IMG/VR virus record: IMGVR_UViG_3300029745_000183
Span: 1-7,267 of that record
Reading direction: 5' to 3' (one strand)
From: a virus
Lineage: Duplodnaviria; Heunggongvirae; Uroviricota; Caudoviricetes
DNA: 7,267 nucleotides
This document shows positions 1 to 7,267 of the stretch, piece after piece (positions within the stretch are counted from its first letter, which is position 1; each line of letters opens with the position of its first letter). A program made the translations under genes and the position numbers. The notes under the pieces were generated by a model that saw only the letters and a program-made list of their open reading frames with translations, was not told where the DNA came from and searched no databases.

Positions 1-192
1 GTGACGCGAAAAGATGCCTGGTACTTTGCCAACTATGACCCGCGTATGAAGCGTGAAGGCCTGCATTATGTCGTGGTTGAGCGGGATGAAAAGTACATGG
101 CGAATTTTGACGAGATGGTGCCGGAGTTCATCGAAAAAATGGACGAGGCACTGGCTGAAATTGGTTTTGTATTTGGGGAGCAATGGCGATGA
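1..192 (+). CDS. 3' end (63 codons) of an unidentified protein, probably truncated at the window edge
   Basis: Frame is open from base 1 to TGA at 190-192. The first codon is GTG at the window edge, so the real start is most likely upstream. The stop overlaps the ATG of the next ORF (ATGA at 189-192). No motif I can assign. Confidence 0.5.
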
Positions 193-347
193 CGCATCCT
201 CACGATAATATCCGGGTAGGCGCGATCACTTTCGTCTACTCCATTACAAAGCGAGGCTGGGTATTTCCCGGCCTTTCTGTTATCAGAAATCCACTGAAAG
301 CACAGCGGCTGGCTGAGAAGATAAATAACAAACAGGAGGATATATGA
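189..347 (+). CDS. Hypothetical small protein (52 aa), translationally coupled on both sides
   Basis: ATG at 189 overlaps the upstream stop (ATGA) and its TGA at 345-347 overlaps the ATG of the DGQHR gene (ATGA). GGGGAG sits 9 nt upstream of the ATG. It is below the 60-aa cutoff of the supplied ORF track. No recognisable domain. Confidence 0.3.
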
Positions 348-1408
348 GTCAGGTTGGTAATCATTCATTCGAATTTCCGGCATCGCAAGGTGTACAGGGT
401 GGTACTGTTACACTCTTCCTTACCATACCAGGAAGATCGCTGGCTCGTTTCCTCGCTTCAGATAATTACGGCCATACACTGGAACGCTCTCAGCGAGAAA
501 TTAATCCAAATCGAGTACGAAAATTTTTAAATTATCTCACTAACGCAGACTCAAGAAATGAGCCTTTTATCATTCCCCCTCTCGTAGGTAACTGTGATTC
601 GAATATAGAATTTGTACCGTTTGGCAACACAAATGTTGGTATAGCCAGAATTCCCCTCGACGCCGAAATAAAACTTTTTGATGGTCAACATCGTGCAGCT
701 GGCATTGAGATATTTTGCCGAAGTTCCCCATCAACGCTCATGGTTCCCATGATGCTTACAATGAATCTGCCGCTAAAAACCCGGCAGCAGTTCTTTTCGG
801 ACATAAATAACAACGTTTCTAAGCCATCAGCGACCATCAATATGGCGTATAACGGCCGGGATGATATTGCTCAGGGAATGATATCCTTCCTGACCCAACA
901 TACTGTATTTGCCGATATAACCGATTTTGAACACAACGTAGTGCCATTAAAAAGTAATATGTGGGTGAGTTTCAAGGCACTCACTGATGCAACGTCAAAG
1001 TTCGCTAGGAACGGCAATCAACAACTTGAAATGGGATATATAGAATCTGTCTGGGAGGCATGGATTACACTAACTCAGATTGACTCAATCCGACATGGTG
1101 TACACCACGCTACGTACAAGCGCGATTATATTCAGTTCCATGGAGTAATGATTAACGCTTTCGGTTTTGCGGTTCAACAGATGATGGTTAATCATTCCAT
1201 CGCAGAAATAACTTCTATGATCGAAAAACTATGTGCAACTACCAGCTCTGCAGAAAGAGAGGATTTTTTTCTGATGGATAACTGGGCGGGGATCTGCACG
1301 AAAGCCAGCCAGGAAAAACTATCTGTTATTGCCAATGTGGCAGCGCAGAAAGCAGCAGCAAACAGACTGATACAAGCTTTTACCAAAGGAAGTCTGGAAA
1401 CAACTTAA
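344..1408 (+). CDS. DGQHR-domain protein, DndB-like (ParB/Srx-fold superfamily), 354 aa
   Basis: Contains the exact family-defining motif DGQHR (in IKLFDGQHRAAGIEIF), preceded by FIIPPLVGN. Length is in the DndB range. AGGAGG lies 4 nt upstream of ATG 344. No DndC/D/E-like genes follow in the window. Confidence 0.75.
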   Translation: MSQVGNHSFEFPASQGVQGGTVTLFLTIPGRSLARFLASDNYGHTLERSQREINPNRVRKFLNYLTNADSRNEPFIIPPLVGNCDSNIEFVPFGNTNVGIARIPLDAEIKLFDGQHRAAGIEIFCRSSPSTLMVPMMLTMNLPLKTRQQFFSDINNNVSKPSATINMAYNGRDDIAQGMISFLTQHTVFADITDFEHNVVPLKSNMWVSFKALTDATSKFARNGNQQLEMGYIESVWEAWITLTQIDSIRHGVHHATYKRDYIQFHGVMINAFGFAVQQMMVNHSIAEITSMIEKLCATTSSAEREDFFLMDNWAGICTKASQEKLSVIANVAAQKAAANRLIQAFTKGSLETT

Positions 1409-1485
1409 TGAATCAACATTGTCTCATATCAGCATGCTGTACGGCGTCTTTAAGGAACGGTGAGCATGAAAAACAAAATCATCAT

Positions 1486-1512
1486 GGAGCTACAGGCTCC
1501 TTTTTTATTATT
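1486..1512 (+). terminator. Candidate intrinsic terminator downstream of the DGQHR gene
   Basis: GGAGC-tacag-GCTCC hairpin (5-bp stem) followed directly by TTTTTTATTATT. The stem is short, so this is weak to moderate. Confidence 0.35.
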
Positions 1513-1561
1513 CGCATTCACCCTCAAGCGTATTAACCAACAATTCAGGGATTAATGAAAG

Positions 1562-1780
1562 ATGGCAGACATCATTGATTCAGCATCAGAAATTGAAGAA
1601 TTACAGCGCAACACAGCAATAAAAATGCGCCGCCTGAACCACCAGGCTATATCTGCCACTCATTGTTGTGAGTGTGGCGATCCGATAGATGAACGAAGAC
1701 GCCTGGCCGTTCAGGGTTGTCGGACTTGTGCAAGTTGCCAGGAGGAGATCGAACTTAAGAACAAACAATGGGGACTGTGA
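1562..1780 (+). CDS. TraR/DksA-family C4-type zinc-finger protein (72 aa)
   Basis: Small protein with two Cys pairs (CCEC and CRTCASC) in the spacing typical of the TraR/DksA C4 zinc finger. Homologues are common in lambdoid early regions. Confidence 0.7.
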   Translation: MADIIDSASEIEELQRNTAIKMRRLNHQAISATHCCECGDPIDERRRLAVQGCRTCASCQEEIELKNKQWGL

Positions 1781-1827
1781 TGGCTTCAAAGCAGCAAATT
1801 TCAACATCGTCCAACTGAGGTGTAAAA

Positions 1828-2067
1828 ATGTTCAGAATCATTTTTCCTAACACCTGGTACGTCGACCACCACGGCACTCCCTGCAAAATCCTGCGTTCTA
1901 CCCACAACAAAGTTCACTACATCCGAAAAGGCAGAACATGTATCGCCAGCATGTTCCGCTTTAATCATGACTTTGAACCTGTGAATAAAGCTGATGCAGA
2001 TCGGATAGCAGAAGAGATCGAAACGGCAGAACACATTAAGAAGTTACGTGCCATACGCAGGAAATAG
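1828..2067 (+). CDS. Hypothetical phage protein (79 aa)
   Basis: ORF with a good SD (GAGGTG, 7-nt spacer), co-oriented with the xis-int operon. No motif recognised. Confidence 0.55.
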   Translation: MFRIIFPNTWYVDHHGTPCKILRSTHNKVHYIRKGRTCIASMFRFNHDFEPVNKADADRIAEEIETAEHIKKLRAIRRK

Positions 2068-2206
2068 AAAAATTGATAAATTCAATACTGCATTACTCAG
2101 CATTAAATTTATCTCTATGACCAGTCAAGAGATGTACCTGCCATGAGCTTAATATCATGTCAGATATATCGGTCACAAACTCCCTCAGCAGCTAAGAGGA
2201 GGACAA

Positions 2207-2443
2207 ATGTCTCGACTAATCACTTTACAGGACTGGGCTAAAGAAGAATTTGGGGACTTAGCACCAAGTGAGCGAGTTCTGAAAAAATACGCGCAAGGGA
2301 AAATGATGGCCCCACCCGCTATAAAAGTTGGTCGCTACTGGATGATTGACCGAAATTCCCGTTTTGTAGGAACGCTTGCAGAACCGCAACTCCCAATAAA
2401 CGCAAACCCAAAACTCCAACGGATAATCGCTGATGGCTGCTAG
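2207..2443 (+). CDS. xis: Excisionase (lambda Xis-like winged helix)
   Basis: N-terminal ITLQDW and a PPAIKVGRYW segment resemble lambda/HK022 Xis (LTLQEW ... PPPVKDGREY). AAGAGGAGG RBS. The 3' end overlaps the int start by 11 nt, as in lambda. Confidence 0.85.
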   Translation: MSRLITLQDWAKEEFGDLAPSERVLKKYAQGKMMAPPAIKVGRYWMIDRNSRFVGTLAEPQLPINANPKLQRIIADGC

Positions 2444-3575
2444 ACCCCGATCTCACAAAATCTCTATACCCAATTTATATTGCAAATTAGATAAGCGAAC
2501 CGGAAAGGTATATTGGCAATACAAACATCCACTATCCGGTCGTTTTCATAGCTTAGGAACTGATGAGAATGAAGCAAAACAAGTTGCTACTGAAGCAAAT
2601 ACCATTATTGCTGAACAACGTACCAGACAAATATTAAGCGTCAATGAGCGTCTGGAAAGAATGAAAGGCAGGCGCTCAGACATTACGGTGACAGAATGGC
2701 TTGATAAATATATTTCTATCCAGGAGGACAGGCTGCAACATAATGAACTAAGACCCAACTCCTATCGGCAAAAAGGCAAACCCATTCGTCTTTTCCGTGA
2801 GCATTGTGGAATGCAACACCTCAAGGATATTACCGCACTTGATATTGCCGAAATAATTGATGCTGTAAAGGCTGAAGGTCATAACAGGATGGCGCAAGTC
2901 GTGAGAATGGTGTTGATCGACGTCTTCAAAGAAGCACAACACGCAGGACATGTTCCGCCAGGATTTAACCCTGCGCAGGCAACAAAACAACCGCGAAATC
3001 GAGTAAACCGCCAAAGATTGTCACTGCTCGAATGGCAGGCAATATTTGAAAGCGTAAGCAGACGGCAGCCCTATTTAAAATGCGGCATGCTACTTGCTCT
3101 TGTTACTGGACAACGTTTAGGCGATATCTGCAATTTGAAATTCTCTGATATATGGGACGACATGTTGCACATTACTCAGGAAAAAACCGGTTCAAAACTT
3201 GCTATTCCGCTTAACCTGAAATGCGATGCTCTGAATATTACCCTTCGTGAAGTTATATCTCAGTGCAGGGATGCTGTTGTTAGTAAATATCTGGTCCATT
3301 ACCGTCACACTACCTCTCAAGCAAACAGAGGAGACCAGGTTTCTGCAAATACTCTGACAACGGCTTTTAAAAAGGCCCGGGAAAAATGTGGCATAAAATG
3401 GGAGCAAGGAACTGCGCCCACATTTCATGAGCAGCGATCTCTCTCAGAACGGTTATATCGGGAACAGGGTCTGGATACGCAAAAGTTGTTAGGCCATAAA
3501 TCCAGAAAAATGACCGACCGATACAATGATGATCGTGGTAAAGACTGGATTATCGTAGATATCAAAACAGCATAG
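2433..3575 (+). CDS. int: Tyrosine recombinase, lambda Int family integrase (380 aa)
   Basis: N-terminus RPRSHKISIPNLY and C-terminal TFHEQRSLSERLY...LLGHKS...RYNDDRG match lambda Int (RRRSHERRDLPPNLY; TFHELRSLSARLY...LLGHKSDTM...YRDDRG), including the catalytic R, HxxR and Y positions. Confidence 0.95.
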   Translation: MAARPRSHKISIPNLYCKLDKRTGKVYWQYKHPLSGRFHSLGTDENEAKQVATEANTIIAEQRTRQILSVNERLERMKGRRSDITVTEWLDKYISIQEDRLQHNELRPNSYRQKGKPIRLFREHCGMQHLKDITALDIAEIIDAVKAEGHNRMAQVVRMVLIDVFKEAQHAGHVPPGFNPAQATKQPRNRVNRQRLSLLEWQAIFESVSRRQPYLKCGMLLALVTGQRLGDICNLKFSDIWDDMLHITQEKTGSKLAIPLNLKCDALNITLREVISQCRDAVVSKYLVHYRHTTSQANRGDQVSANTLTTAFKKAREKCGIKWEQGTAPTFHEQRSLSERLYREQGLDTQKLLGHKSRKMTDRYNDDRGKDWIIVDIKTA

Positions 3576-3585
3576 AAAATAGCCA

Positions 3586-3622
3586 GTTTTGGGGAAGGGT
3601 TTTGGGGAAAGTTTTGGGGAAG
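3586..3622. repeat. Three tandem copies of GTTTTGGGGAA(G/A), period 12-13 bp
   Basis: Direct reading: copies start at 3586, 3599 and 3611, immediately 3' of the int stop codon. Confidence 0.6.
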
Positions 3623-3642
3623 ATTTTACATCATCATAAATC

Positions 3643-3675
3643 AACGGGCGTGTTATACGCCCGTTTCAATATTTA
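3643..3675. terminator. Bidirectional intrinsic terminator shared by int (+) and the icd fragment (-)
   Basis: Perfect 9-bp stem AACGGGCGT / ACGCCCGTT with a 5-nt loop, followed by TTTCAATATTT on the + strand and a U-rich run on the minus strand. It lies 23 nt beyond the icd stop codon. Confidence 0.65.
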
Positions 3676-3688
3676 ACACATGTAGTGA

Positions 3689-3853
3689 TTACATATTCTT
3701 GATGATCGCGTCACCAAACTCTGAACATTTCAGCAGTTTAGCGCCTTCCATCAGACGTTCGAAGTCATAGGTTACAGTCTTCGCGTTGATCGCGCCTTCC
3801 ATACCTTTAACAATCAGGTCTGCGGCTTCAGTCCAACCCATGTGGCGCAGCAT
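3689..3853 (-). pseudogene. icd: 3'-terminal fragment of isocitrate dehydrogenase (last 54 codons plus stop), icdC-like
   Basis: Minus-strand translation gives [54 protein letters not shown], which I recognise as the Icd C-terminus. An in-frame TAA two codons upstream ends the homology at about 3853, so no full-length icd is present. Confidence 0.85.
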
Positions 3854-3911
3854 TAGTTAGATGACTAAATCGTAACTATTTGACATAGCAACATAATTTT
3901 ACTAATTTGCA

Positions 3912-3948
3912 TATAACTCATTAGCCCTTAGCATTTCTATAACTCATT
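3912..3948. repeat. Two exact direct copies of TATAACTCATT, 26 bp apart
   Basis: Direct reading: copies at 3912-3922 and 3938-3948, in the AT-rich arm between the icd homology boundary and the mcrA 3' end. Confidence 0.5.
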
Positions 3949-4040
3949 GATTATAAACATGTGTTTTTGAGTTTTGATAACCATTTTTAGCATAAAAATA
4001 GCAGTTAACATTTGCAGAAGTTAAGATCAGAGAAAAATTT

Positions 4041-4054
4041 TACCCTGTAGGGTA
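4041..4054 (-). terminator. Weak candidate terminator downstream of mcrA
   Basis: TACCC-tgta-GGGTA hairpin about 35 nt past the mcrA stop, followed on the minus strand by AAATTTTTCTC. The stem is only 5 bp. Confidence 0.2.
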
Positions 4055-4086
4055 TTACGTCTTAAATGTGACTTTAATAAATAATT

Positions 4087-4920
4087 TTATTTCTGTAATC
4101 GGTTTATATTAACGTAAAGCATCTCGATTAGTTCTTTTGCATTTTTACTATAGTGCAATTCTCTATGGCAATTCGGACAAAGGGCAACACAGTTATCTGT
4201 TGTATCAGCACCACCTGAAGACAGGGGAATTACATGATGCACTTCCAAATATGGGTTTCCATCATTTAAATAAAACGGAGCATTTTTACCACAGTTTTCA
4301 CATATACCTTTACTTTGCTGTAAAATCCAAGCTTTTACCATCGGGTCTCGGACATAAACTTTTTGTAGTCTTTCTACCTCAACTGGTTTCCTAGAGCCCT
4401 CGGGTTGACTCAACGTTTTCTTAATTAATTTACTAACCCTCATATTCAGAAGCGATTCATCATCTGTAGGCTGTGAAAGCTCTGATAGTTCTCCACGTAT
4501 TATAGACGCCCAAAAACTGTCACTATAAATACCTGGAACATTTATCAATATTCGTTTCGTTCTATTGCCGGAAGGAATTTCCTTTCTCCCCGTACGACTA
4601 AAATAAGCCTGATAACCACACATCTTCAAGCGTATATCGCGGGGGCTATTACCAATCAAAGTAAAATATTCACCAGGATGGATTTTTCTTTCATCCAAAG
4701 AATGCATATGTTTTCTGACTGATGATGACGCCAGATATACTACGACTTGGGATACACCAGAATCAACCAACCGTTCAATGATATAATCAAGAGCGATATT
4801 GTAATCTTTGTTTCTGTCACCCGGCCCCCACGACTCAAGGATTAGACCATAAACACCATCCTCTTCACCTATCGAACACTCAGCTTTCAGTTCAATTCCA
4901 TTATTATCAAAAACATGCAT
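4087..4920 (-). CDS. mcrA: McrA, type IV modified-cytosine-specific restriction endonuclease (HNH), 277 aa
   Basis: Protein begins MHVFDNNGIELKAECSIGEEDGVYGLILESWGPGDRNKDY and ends with the HNH region CENCG...HHVIP...CVALCPNCHRELH. Length and sequence match my recollection of E. coli McrA, which is encoded on e14 next to pin. Confidence 0.93.
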   Translation of the reverse strand: MHVFDNNGIELKAECSIGEEDGVYGLILESWGPGDRNKDYNIALDYIIERLVDSGVSQVVVYLASSSVRKHMHSLDERKIHPGEYFTLIGNSPRDIRLKMCGYQAYFSRTGRKEIPSGNRTKRILINVPGIYSDSFWASIIRGELSELSQPTDDESLLNMRVSKLIKKTLSQPEGSRKPVEVERLQKVYVRDPMVKAWILQQSKGICENCGKNAPFYLNDGNPYLEVHHVIPLSSGGADTTDNCVALCPNCHRELHYSKNAKELIEMLYVNINRLQK

Positions 4921-5026
4921 AATATTAATCTTTAATCAATTTTTCACGACAATACTACTTTTATTGATAAAATTGCAACAAGTTGCTGTTGTTTTACTTT
5001 CTTTTGTACACAAAGTGTCTTTAACT

Positions 5027-5581
5027 TTATTTATCCCCTGCAGGAAACCTCTTATACAAAGTTGACACACCAACATCATAGATAATCGCCACCTTCTGGC
5101 GAGGAACTCCTGATGCAATTAATCGTCCGGCCTGTTCCCATTGTTCTGGTGTAAGTTTGGGACGACGTCCACCAATTCGTCCCTGTGCGCGAGCAGCTTC
5201 CAGTCCAGCTTTTGTTCTTTCAACAATCAGTTCACGCTCCATTTCAGCCAGGGCACCCATCACATGAAAGAAAAAGCGCCCCATTGGGGTACTGGTATCA
5301 ATTGAATCCGTCAGACTACGAAAGTTGATGCCTCGTTCGCGCAACTCCTCCACCAGCACGACAAGATGCCGCATACTGCGCCCCAGTCGGTCCAGTTTCC
5401 AGACCACCAGCGTATCACCTGCCGATAATGTCCTGAGCAGTTTTTTCAGTCCCGGCCTTTCGGACTTTGTACCGCTTATCTTGTCTTCAAAAATCAGCTC
5501 GCATCCTGCACAGTTCAGCGCATTACGTTGTAGATCTGTGTTCTGGTCATTTGTTGACACACGTACATAGCCAATAAGCAT
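5027..5581 (-). CDS. pin: Pin DNA invertase, serine recombinase of the Gin/Hin/Pin family (184 aa)
   Basis: From the internal Met the protein reads MLIGYVRVSTNDQNTDLQRNAL..., the canonical invertase N-terminus with catalytic Ser in VRVSTNDQ, and has a C-terminal HTH. GGGAG RBS 8 nt upstream of ATG at 5581. The track ORF start at 5617 is an in-frame upstream extension. Confidence 0.93.
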   Translation of the reverse strand: MLIGYVRVSTNDQNTDLQRNALNCAGCELIFEDKISGTKSERPGLKKLLRTLSAGDTLVVWKLDRLGRSMRHLVVLVEELRERGINFRSLTDSIDTSTPMGRFFFHVMGALAEMERELIVERTKAGLEAARAQGRIGGRRPKLTPEQWEQAGRLIASGVPRQKVAIIYDVGVSTLYKRFPAGDK

Positions 5582-5607
5582 GGTAGATCTCCCTGACAAA
5601 AGCAGGA

Positions 5608-6063
5608 ATGATGCCATTTGCTCGTTATTTCTGCATTTTCATAAACGTTGGTTTGGGAGAAGCGGCAAAACGAAATGTGGGGACAGGGGAAAATCAGATA
5701 CCGGACATGGCCTCTTTTGCCAGTGGTGATGGATGGATGAAATTACCCAACGGGAAAATCCTGCAATATGGTCGTGGTGCGATTACGCCGACATTATCGA
5801 CGCAAACAATGAGAATTACATTCAGCATCCCTTTTCCTAAAGAAGTGGACTGCGCCATGCTTACCCATTCTGGTGATGGTGGTGCGCCTTTAGGCGCTGG
5901 ACGGGGATTCGTGATGACTGCAGAAGGTCCAACACTAACCGGTTTTAATTCCGCTTACAGAACTGCATCAACCAGCTCCACAGTAACCTCTATAACTGTA
6001 TTGACGATTTGCAGTGATTGCAGGACGTTACGGGTAGCCTCATCGTTCTGTGGTTTCTGTTAA
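5608..6063 (+). pseudogene. Orphan side-tail-fibre C-terminal fragment (stfE-like), the variable cassette of the Pin inversion module
   Basis: Divergent from pin and reads through the crossover site. The segment [19 protein letters not shown] resembles tail-fibre C-terminal domains. No fibre N-terminal region, no tfa gene, and a Cys-rich, non-protein-like tail ([17 protein letters not shown]). ATG 5608 is probably not a genuine start. Confidence 0.4.
5636..5661. other. Pin/Gin/Hin-type recombination crossover site (pix-like), 26 bp
   Basis: TTTTCATAAACG-TT-GGTTTGGGAGAA: two 12-bp half-sites around a 2-bp core. Reverse complement TTCTCCCAAACC-AA-CGTTTATGAAAA resembles hixL TTCTTGAAAACC-AA-GGTTTTTGATAA. 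Sits 55 bp upstream of the pin start, the expected position. Confidence 0.55.
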
Positions 6064-6068
6064 TCGAT

Positions 6069-6269
6069 TTATCCATTAGATTTTTCATAAAGCTCAGGTT
6101 TAAATGGCAACCGTCCGCAAGTTCTATATGCAGCTTCTGCTGCACGTCCTTTTGGAATTAACTGGCCCGGACGGTTTCGCCACTGATAAACGGCTTCAGT
6201 TGTTATGCCGAAAAAAGCAGCAACTTTCTCAATACTGCCGAAGTAGCTTTCGATATCGTCAGTTGTCAT
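6069..6269 (-). CDS. Cro-like HTH regulator (YdaS/Cro family), 66 aa
   Basis: Small HTH protein (VAAFFGITTEAVYQWRN...IPKGRAAEAAYRTCGRLPFKPELY) transcribed divergently from the CI-like repressor. GGAGGG RBS. Confidence 0.8.
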   Translation of the reverse strand: MTTDDIESYFGSIEKVAAFFGITTEAVYQWRNRPGQLIPKGRAAEAAYRTCGRLPFKPELYEKSNG

Positions 6270-6366
6270 ACGCCCTCCAAACTAAGTTTTATTAGATGCT
6301 AATTACAAATCTATCTTTGGTCAATAAAAACTAAGATTACTTAGCAATTCAAGAAATGGTGCTCCT
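6270..6366. promoter_or_regulatory. Divergent promoter/operator region between the cro-like and cI-like genes
   Basis: 97-bp AT-rich intergenic region. Two inverted repeats of form CTAAG-N4-(C/A)TTAG at 6282-6295 and 6331-6344. Minus-strand sigma70-like elements TTGACC (6319-6324) and TAGCAT (6296-6301) with a 17-bp spacer, a candidate pR for the cro-like gene. Confidence 0.55.
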
Positions 6367-6993
6367 ATGGAAACGGTTGGTCAGCGTATAAAAGCTCTGA
6401 GAAGAGTTACCGGAACGTCCCAGAAAGAATTGGGTAAATTTTGTGGAGTAAGCGACGTTGCTGTGGGGTACTGGGAGAAAGACATCAATACCCCTGGTGG
6501 GGAGGCACTTTCGAAATTAGCGAAGTTCTTCAATACGTCAATAGATTACATTCTTTATGGTGCTGAGTTTGAAGGCAAACTCGTCACAAACATGCGCAGA
6601 GTTCCTGTAATATCGTGGGTTCAGGCTGGGCAGTTTACTGAGTGCAGGGCAGCAGAAGTGTTTAGTGAAGTGGACAAGTGGGTAGATACATCATTAAAGA
6701 TTGGTGATAACTCATTTGCATTAGAGGTTAAAGGTGACTCCATGACTAACCCTAATGGCCTCCCAACAATACCAGAAGGCGCAACAGTGATTGTAGATCC
6801 AGATGCAGAACCTCGTCATGGAAAAATAGTCATCGCTCGACTTGATGGAACAAACGAAGCTACAGTAAAAAAATTAGTCATCGATGGCCCTCAAAAGTTT
6901 TTAGTGCCATTAAATCCTCGGTATCCCAACATCCCTATCAATGGTAATTGCCTTATCATTGGTGTAGTCAAAGGAGTTCAATACGAACTCTAA
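6367..6993 (+). CDS. CI-like prophage repressor: N-terminal XRE HTH plus C-terminal S24 (LexA-like) autopeptidase domain, 208 aa
   Basis: HTH at the N-terminus (QKELGKFCGVSDVAVGYWE). Ala-Gly cleavage-site candidate in WVQAGQF. Catalytic Ser in KGDSM and Lys in ATVKKL, as in LexA and lambda CI. Confidence 0.88.
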   Translation: METVGQRIKALRRVTGTSQKELGKFCGVSDVAVGYWEKDINTPGGEALSKLAKFFNTSIDYILYGAEFEGKLVTNMRRVPVISWVQAGQFTECRAAEVFSEVDKWVDTSLKIGDNSFALEVKGDSMTNPNGLPTIPEGATVIVDPDAEPRHGKIVIARLDGTNEATVKKLVIDGPQKFLVPLNPRYPNIPINGNCLIIGVVKGVQYEL

Positions 6994-7058
6994 GACCTCT
7001 CTTCTCTAACTAAGGCACCGAACTAAGAAAAGTTTGGTGTTTTCTCTTGCCATAATAA

Positions 7059-7072
7059 CTAAGTTAAGTTAG
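7059..7072. promoter_or_regulatory. Third operator-like inverted repeat CTAAG-ttaa-GTTAG downstream of the repressor gene
   Basis: Same half-site architecture as the two sites in the cro-cI intergenic region. Lies in a 247-bp untranslated region upstream of the next + strand gene, where a pL/oL equivalent would be expected. Confidence 0.3.
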
Positions 7073-7240
7073 ATTTTATATCAAAGATAACGAACAGGCA
7101 GGACGCCCACGAAGTAGCCGCCTGGGGCATATGAAGTCCAGGATGATTCGTTAGCAACAAAAAAGCGCCCTACAGGACGCTTAGCTCTTTAACAATCTGG
7201 TCCCCATCAACAAGTAACTGATAACTTGAGGAGGTGTGAA

Positions 7241-7267
7241 ATGCACAAAACAGAACCAAAAATCGTC
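7241..7267 (+). CDS. 5' end of an unidentified gene (first 9 codons, MHKTEPKIV), truncated by the window end
   Basis: ATG at 7241 preceded by a strong GAGGAGG SD with a 6-nt spacer. Co-oriented with the repressor gene. Confidence 0.4.

Follow-up and report, generated by a model that had tools for sequence, protein, structure and literature searches.

What does a protein of the DndB family do in the early operon of a lambda-like phage, away from dndC, dndD and dndE? The question is raised by a 7,267-nt stretch of Caudoviricetes DNA (IMG/VR record IMGVR_UViG_3300029745_000183, positions 1 to 7,267; hereafter the window), in which the gene for a 354-aa protein carries the DGQHR motif. A first-pass annotation, made from the letters alone, had described this gene as the last of a translationally coupled module of three open reading frames (ORFs). 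Most of the locus proves to be ordinary: two textbook lambda genes are followed by one accessory gene, the product of which RefSeq already names 'DGQHR domain-containing protein'. The leads lie at the level of the family, in a recurrent methyltransferase neighbour and in a plasmid leading-region niche. From its relatives and their gene neighbourhoods, we propose, with a probability of roughly 0.4, that the DGQHR protein may be an accessory factor that binds DNA in a nucleoside triphosphate (NTP)-gated manner and enables the DNA of an incoming or induced element to cope with host restriction.

The limits of the DGQHR gene as a mobile unit were assayed by blastn against the sister phage 4A7 (locus L002). 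Window 1-346 aligned with L002 4001-4346 at 96.5% identity and window 1428-2500 with L002 4792-5864 at 99.2%, and no match was found between window 346 and 1428. The left junction falls at the DGQHR start codon, the right one about 20 nt beyond the DGQHR stop codon. The same slot in 4A7 holds orf63 (DUF1382) and a small ORF, and the DUF1317 protein of this phage has 60 aa. It is nearly certain that the DGQHR gene is a one-gene cassette, replacing orf63/orf61 between orf60a and the TraR-like orf73. In lambda these genes belong to the conserved exo-xis block orf60a-orf63-orf61-orf73-ea22, which is read from pL early and influences both lysogenisation and induction; Orf73 itself is described as TraR-like (PMC8614690). 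The window keeps the lambda order (exo, orf60a, an orf73 equivalent, xis, int) with orf63/orf61 swapped for the cassette, and its layout from exo to xis-int-icd is that of annotated genomes. The base composition of the cassette, approximately 42-44% GC, does not depart from that of the rest of the exo-xis region.

The upstream gene, hitherto listed as unidentified, is lambda exo: the piece present in the window is 92% identical to lambda Exo residues 164-226 and matches phrog_149 (exonuclease), and the full gene appears in RefSeq as 'lambda exonuclease family protein'. The 52-aa ORF, proposed as a member of the module, is the backbone gene orf60a. Its product is 88% identical to the 60-aa lambda Orf60a and diverges only in the last four aligned residues, a tail changed at the cassette junction; an alternative in-frame ATG at 183 would lengthen it to 54 aa. 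Both ATGA overlaps on which the module was based are present. That at 189-192 joins the stop of the frame-1 ORF (1-192) to the start of the 52-aa ORF (189-347), and that at 344-347 joins the stop of the latter to the start of the 354-aa ORF (344-1408).

These overlaps had been taken to imply co-translation and stoichiometric co-function, a conclusion that does not hold. The genes exo and orf60a already overlap by 4 nt in phage lambda, so the first overlap is an ancestral lambda feature. Among the 56 full-length DGQHR lineages defined below, 25 show a -4 overlap with the upstream gene, and these upstream genes belong to many unrelated families. The overlaps thus reflect the tight packing of phage operons and are no evidence for a fixed partnership. 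Moreover, a strong Shine-Dalgarno sequence stands right before the DGQHR start codon, making independent initiation possible and coupled translation unnecessary. In favour of a module, the upstream same-strand gene encodes DUF1317 in 10 of the 58 lineages; in one group of these, the Salmonella SPN1S-type phages, a gene other than exo precedes it, and a loose functional link is conceivable. However, the upstream gene is different in the other 48, often with the same -4 overlap: HTH-repeat (HTH, helix-turn-helix), ParB-HTH, Rv2179c-like 3'-5' exonuclease, PerC, YqaJ exonuclease and ASCH-like genes as well as small ORFs. Since exo, orf60a, the downstream hairpin and the TraR-like gene are all common to phages devoid of the DGQHR gene (96.5-99% nucleotide identity), the three ORFs are not co-inherited and no co-function is implied. 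The three-gene module was therefore rejected on the lambda identity of exo and orf60a, the mosaic junctions and the variable upstream neighbours. It is highly improbable that the exo fragment, the 52-aa ORF and the DGQHR gene form a co-translated three-protein system for a new DNA modification, exclusion or anti-restriction.

Other parts of the first description were confirmed. A terminator-like hairpin and then a TraR-like gene do follow the DGQHR gene, both belonging to the backbone (Table 1). Its placement in an accessory slot of the early-left operon, upstream of xis-int, also stands, as related contigs carry kil-gam-bet-exo upstream. Indeed, in IMG/VR contigs with an identical gene, the upstream 2-4 kb mostly hold an intact kil-gam-bet-exo array and often reach the repressor gene. 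When window 1-2450 was compared by megablast with 50,697 phage records, the 251 matches covered the flanks only, with a maximum of 56% of the query. The flanks were found in 3,731 of 5,426 complete E. coli genomes and the DGQHR gene in 284 (approximately 5%), always with at least 99% nucleotide identity and at full length in 282 of the 284.

Many of these chromosomal copies belong to short defective prophages at icd (NZ_CP022664.1, NZ_CP148445.1 and NZ_CP101257.1), and exo'-orf60a-DGQHR-TraR-DUF4222-xis-int is kept in all of them. Their pL and immunity region were lost through two or more distinct deletions, giving an O'-exo junction (23 genomes) and a bet' junction. An McrC and AAA-ATPase (McrBC-like) pair is found at the far end of all these defective icd prophages. 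The DGQHR gene is interrupted by IS1 in NZ_CP148275.1, and an IS3 lies within the matched 2.45-kb region in NZ_CP148385.1.

The DGQHR protein, its relatives and their neighbours

The assignment of the 354-aa protein to the DGQHR/DndB family, made in the first-pass annotation, was borne out and is almost beyond doubt. The protein scored 188.8 bits with TIGR03187 (DGQHR; cut-off 58.85) and 158.2 bits with Pfam PF14072 (DndB; cut-off 29.1), both above the curated cut-offs, and it carries DGQHR at residues 113-117. It remained below the cut-offs of the DndB equivalog TIGR03233 (106.9 bits vs 328) and of TIGR04172, phosphorothioation-associated DGQHR protein 1 (16.8 bits vs 450). PADLOC returned its DndB model only, NCBIfam DGQHR-type models only, and PHROGs phrog_7901. 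The absence of DndC/D/E partners was likewise confirmed: tblastn with E. coli DndC, DndD and DndE gave 0 matches, both for the window and for a set of 134 loci including 5-6 kb flanks; a DndB probe detected 132 of the 134. Membership of a Dnd, Ssp or Dpd system was rejected, given the lack of DndC/D/E within 5-6 kb and the PADLOC and NCBIfam results.

A search of 5.8 billion proteins gave 247 matches; the best 120 of these 247 share 53-100% identity with the window protein and are about 350-400 aa long, the named ones coming from Enterobacterales. An alignment of 32 homologues showed a mean column identity of 66%, with invariant segments RSQRE (48-52), GNC (82-84), DGQHRA (113-118), RxQFFSDINNNxSKP (147-161), DFE (194-196) and QFH (264-266). 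The motif residues of the family are among them: Q50-R51 within RSQRE, the DGQHR pentapeptide, and F151-SDI-N155. A profile search of 1.84 billion representatives clustered at 50% identity gave 826 matches at E <= 1e-3 and 79 at E <= 1e-30. Rheinheimera pacifica carries tandem DGQHR paralogues (L036, 3846-6326) of 451 aa and then 341 aa, the latter with DGQTR in place of DGQHR. In a distant branch (P0192-P0254), the proteins reach 510-560 aa and the DGQHR domain starts at about residue 135-170, implying an N-terminal extension or fusion.

The AlphaFold2 model (pLDDT 81.9) consists of a beta-rich N-domain followed by helices. In this model the N-domain (approximately residues 8-140) adopts a ParB/sulfiredoxin fold, and the C-terminal region is predicted to be alpha-helical; the fold that had been attributed to the protein is thus supported for the N-domain core. 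Putative nucleotide-binding motifs can be read in the sequence of this domain. Searching the PDB by sequence revealed no relative (best match at the level of noise, E = 0.9), and Foldseek against the PDB was uninformative. The viral structural relatives are DndB-like, AIPR, DUF262/GmrSD-N and ParB-like proteins. The helical C-terminal half gave no informative match. DndB has been described as a ParB domain joined to a HEPN domain (Makarova et al. 2013, PMC3632139). The window protein contains R260-x5-H266, a HEPN-type Rx4-6H pattern in which R260 is a lysine in distant members, and no HEPN match was found by structure or profile.

The genes around the relatives were examined in 41 genomic and 80 viral loci, dereplicated at 97% protein identity into 58 lineages, 56 of them full-length. 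By tblastn with six methyltransferase representatives, 22 of the 58 lineages were found to carry a same-strand methyltransferase gene no more than 860 nt downstream of the DGQHR gene; one lying elsewhere within 5-6 kb of it was seen in only 3. The downstream gene either overlaps the DGQHR stop codon or follows a single intervening HTH-repeat gene. Five methyltransferase families are represented (MT-A70, phage Dam PF05869, N6_N4, D12 and, by its motifs, C5), and the paired DGQHR proteins are 30-73% identical to the window protein. The nearest clade, at 73% identity, comes from E. coli prophages with the order PerC-DGQHR-MT-A70, the MT-A70 gene overlapping the DGQHR stop. The 3' end of the window gene resembles this type: its last 240 nt or so (window 1140-1380) are 77-88% identical (mean approximately 85%) to L075 at about 5800-6040, compared with approximately 65% for the rest. 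Since the L075-type clade carries the downstream MT-A70 gene, this suggests recombination within the gene and possibly the loss of a methyltransferase.

In 9 lineages (L007, L083-L090, L097-L110 and similar), the protein encoded between the DGQHR and methyltransferase genes has 154-179 aa and repeated HTH motifs. Its Pfam matches are weak, to Sigma70_r4_2 and to GcrA (E = 6e-4). GcrA-type proteins read DNA methylation. The HTH-repeat protein could be the third member of a DGQHR-HTH-methyltransferase unit.

Homologues of 427-438 aa and 36-43% identity were also found in 1,062 of 72,556 PLSDB plasmids, 880 of which are predicted to be conjugative. Their hosts are mainly Klebsiella, Enterobacter, Escherichia and Citrobacter. 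On the IncL/M plasmid NZ_CP084785.1 (locus L129, 8989-10272), a 427-aa homologue has the same orientation as ssb, an antirestriction gene, DUF1380 and Hha and lies approximately 9 kb from mobA/traI, a location that we infer to be the leading region. The gene is split by IS1B in many plasmid records of about 63.6 kb, which we take to be pOXA-48-like. In a Buttiauxella plasmid-like contig (L020, 4744-9478), the order is ArdA, DGQHR (437 aa), PsiA and, further on, a KlcA-type antirestriction gene. The gene usually found just upstream of psiA is psiB, the place of which is taken here by the DGQHR gene. Leading regions harbour an excess of anti-defence genes and orphan methyltransferases (PMC11541004); in the supplementary tables of the leading-region study, 'DGQHR' appears in one row only, with a count of 7. 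Relatives of the window protein occupy early or establishment regions of mobile elements, namely the early-left operons of phages and, in conjugative plasmids, the side of oriT with ssb and anti-restriction genes.

Proposed role and alternative explanations

A promoter scan detected no sigma-70-like site upstream of the DGQHR gene on the plus strand, and the number of sites was no higher than in shuffled sequence. The position inside the pL-driven exo-xis region and the lack of a promoter-like site of its own suggest a delayed-early product rather than a defence gene expressed in the lysogen. Judging from position, the protein would be made from the pL transcript after infection or induction. 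Nucleotide bound at the pocket formed by DGQHR, RSQRE and FSDINN would then probably gate DNA binding, by analogy with DndB (a repressor whose DNA binding is modulated by ATP), with a bacterial DndB-like protein that binds ATP/GTP (PMC12704722) and with ParB-type clamps. Because the homologous genes lie in regions whose functions are directed at element DNA just after its entry or induction, we propose that the protein assists this DNA against host restriction, which is the weakest step of the argument. It might do so by helping or controlling DNA methylation, or by shielding the DNA. This E. coli allele lacks the methyltransferase partner, so its product would have to work unaided or rely on such an enzyme from another locus. 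Altogether, the context favours a role in anti-restriction or establishment over a prophage-encoded defence.

A broader form of this proposal takes stand-alone DGQHR proteins as a widespread class of establishment factors: NTP-gated DNA binders, made first at entry or induction, that would defeat restriction alone or with any orphan methyltransferase available. We consider this generalisation doubtful. One possible route for such a class would be decoy activity towards the related DUF262-type domains of Type IV or phosphorothioate (PT)-sensing restriction enzymes.

Several observations weigh against an anti-restriction role. The clade of the window gene lacks a methyltransferase within 5 kb, and Pfam labelling of the gene contexts in Klebsiella and Citrobacter clades revealed none either. 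The six probes behind the count of methyltransferase neighbours were taken from DGQHR neighbours themselves, so that other kinds of methyltransferase could be missed, and the 58 lineages cannot be counted as phylogenetically independent cases. That DGQHR and anti-restriction genes lie together may reflect nothing but a shared slot for accessory genes. Binding of nucleotide and DNA by the DGQHR protein is transposed from its relatives, and no functional study of stand-alone phage or plasmid DGQHR proteins was found in the literature. Finally, several complete E. coli genomes carry decayed remnants that have lost pL through different deletions; copies in such remnants, and those interrupted by insertion sequences in E. 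coli and on plasmids, indicate that the gene is dispensable to the host.

The DGQHR protein might instead regulate phage or host expression in the manner of DndB, KorB or HerB, tuning the lysis-lysogeny decision or host physiology with no part in restriction evasion. DndB, the closest of its characterised relatives, represses transcription in a sequence-specific manner; it binds TACGN10CGTA operators and requires Cys29 for DNA binding (PMC4507180). The cassette replaces orf63/orf61 in a region that modulates lysogenisation and induction, and the ParB-like leading-region protein HerB reprograms host transcription (PMC13370423). However, the DndB operator is absent from the window even with one mismatch allowed, isoleucine takes the place of Cys29, the cassette contains no non-coding DNA to hold an operator of its own, and the protein matches no canonical HTH family. 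Regulation would also leave the recurrent methyltransferase neighbour unexplained. We regard it as possible but on balance unlikely. A defence or exclusion effector is less likely still. Such a protein would be a ParB-fold NTPase or nuclease (compare Osa, AbiU1/AIPR and the DUF262 N-domains found in GmrSD, SspE and BrxU), its C-domain being perhaps HEPN-like. It would attack the nucleic acid of competing phages or plasmids, or deplete nucleotides, and so cause superinfection exclusion. AIPR and GmrSD-N proteins among the viral fold relatives, the ParB plus HEPN description of DndB together with the R260-x5-H266 pattern, and the effector roles proposed for DndB by Aravind's group (PMC10853773) are all consistent with it. 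Nevertheless, a Pfam scan revealed no DUF1524, HNH or PD-(D/E)xK nuclease domain, and DndB, the only model matched in PADLOC, is not an effector. Position in the pL operon without a promoter of its own argues against expression in the lysogen, and the plasmid leading-region homologues are found among anti-defence, not defence, genes.

The gene could also be a functionless passenger, the remnant of a DGQHR-methyltransferase pair hitch-hiking in prophages that are often defective. This would fit the MT-A70 gene that the nearest clade has and the window allele lacks, the many copies in decayed prophages devoid of pL, and the IS1 and IS3 insertions. Moreover, the near-identity of the 284 E. coli copies leaves little time for selection to become visible. 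Yet the reading frame is intact, every residue invariant in the family is kept, and almost all the E. coli copies are full-length. In addition, several other clades without a methyltransferase keep the gene across genera at 55-67% identity, which argues for purifying selection on the stand-alone form. A passenger is thus improbable, more so than an effector.

Whatever the role of the protein, the family is common. Besides the E. coli prophages, over 1,000 plasmids carry it, among them vehicles of carbapenem resistance of the IncL/M and pOXA-48 types. Its members recur in the regions that house the anti-restriction genes of mobile elements, in many cases with an orphan DNA methyltransferase gene immediately downstream. 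If the DGQHR protein does act in anti-defence or as a methylation helper, this would be a new function for the ParB superfamily and a possible determinant of the establishment of phages and resistance plasmids in new hosts. It would also shed light on the role of DndB-like proteins outside phosphorothioation systems.

Other features of the window

The features of the window are listed in Table 1. The hairpin behind the DGQHR gene falls within the block shared with phage 4A7 at 99.2% identity. An Rfam scan of the window detected no RNA family. The terminator scan also returned an AT-rich inverted repeat with a 16-bp stem (2075-2113, minus strand), in the 140-nt gap between DUF4222 and xis, and a 9-bp GC-rich hairpin (253-275, plus strand) within orf60a.

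Past the integrase and the icd 3' duplicate (window 3689-7267), a second, e14-like element was observed. The window therefore suggests two prophage-derived elements in tandem at icd. The whole arrangement was contiguous in 0 of the 5,426 complete E. coli genomes, with a best coverage of 53%.

Table 1. Coordinates and assignment of the features in the 7,267-nt window.
Feature	Position (nt)	Strand	Basis and remarks
lambda exo (Red-alpha), 3' end, last 63 codons and stop	1-192	+	phage backbone, outside the cassette
orf60a homologue (DUF1317), 52 aa	189-347	+	PF07026, E = 4e-31; phage backbone
Shine-Dalgarno AGGAGGA, 3 nt before the DGQHR start codon	334-340	+	sequence reading
Stand-alone DGQHR-domain (DndB-family) protein gene, 354 aa	344-1408	+	
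DGQHR pentapeptide codons, residues 113-117 (context FDGQHRA)	680-694	+	sequence reading
Single-gene mosaic cassette relative to the DGQHR-less sister phage 4A7	347-1427	+	blastn junctions
Terminator-like hairpin GGAGC-TACAG-GCTCC (5 bp, GC-rich; 1486-1500) and T6 tract	1486-1506	+	backbone
TraR/DksA-type zinc-finger gene, orf73 position of the exo-xis region	1562-1780	+	PF01258, E = 1e-8; TIGR02419, E = 1e-14; phrog_54; backbone
DUF4222 gene	1828-2067	+	PF13973, E = 1e-19; backbone
Excisionase	2207-2443	+	Pfam Exc
Lambda-type integrase	2433-3575	+	Pfam Arm-DNA-bind_1, Phage_integrase
Duplicated icd 3' end, prophage end at the icd attachment site	3689-3853	-	Pfam Iso_dh
HNH protein, taken to be McrA	4087-4920	-	
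Pin-type invertase	5027-5617	-	
Tail-fibre C-terminal fragment	5608-6063	+	
Cro-like gene	6069-6269	-	
S24/HTH repressor	6367-6993	+	

Comparison with known systems

Judged by its sequence, the DGQHR protein belongs neither to DndB proper nor to the DUF262 restriction enzymes or the canonical ParB proteins. With DndB, the regulator of dndBCDE, it shares the DGQHR domain family, a similar length (354 vs 361 aa), a ParB/sulfiredoxin N-domain, the QR pair, DGQHR, QQxFxDxN and (R)DY..H motifs, and homology over about 290 residues. However, identity to the functional DndB of E. coli NADC 6564 is only 23% over 292 residues, and the functionally important Cys29 of DndB aligns with Ile28 of the window protein. 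The genomic setting differs too, a phage pL operon in one case and a chromosomal defence island in the other. The DUF262 N-domains of GmrSD, SspE and BrxU resemble it in their ParB/sulfiredoxin fold and in the QR, DGQ(Q/H)R and FxxxN triad (PMC4619093), whereas the window protein has no C-terminal DUF1524/HNH nuclease domain and no DUF262 Pfam match at E <= 1.

The link to DNA modification recalls two further systems. DpdB is the ParB-like ATPase partner of the DNA-modifying DpdA in the 7-deazaguanine (Dpd) system. It is likened to the DGQHR protein by description only. No tRNA-guanine transglycosylase (TGT)-like gene is annotated or Pfam-labelled in the contexts examined. ParB-fold/methyltransferase fusions, for their part, are enriched in prophages (PMC12704722). 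In both systems, as in the paired DGQHR lineages, a ParB-superfamily NTPase is tied physically or by operon to a DNA-modifying enzyme on a mobile element. Unlike in the fusions, the DGQHR and methyltransferase genes are separate, and the window allele has neither a methyltransferase nor a TGT-like neighbour. HerB/YfjB and KorB, CTP-dependent DNA clamps of plasmids with a role in transcriptional control, are also ParB-fold proteins of mobile elements that are made at entry, and the plasmid DGQHR homologues share their leading-region niche. They are, however, canonical ParB proteins with GERRxR-type boxes and an HTH, whereas the window protein has a DGQHRA box and, despite the common fold, no ParBc or HTH_ParB match in Pfam.

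By position, the lambda exo-xis genes are the nearest comparison. The DGQHR gene stands outside their conserved set, as a substitute for orf63/orf61 present in only about 5% of E. coli genomes; it nevertheless occupies the same slot, would be subject to the same early transcription from pL and is, like them, a non-essential accessory gene.

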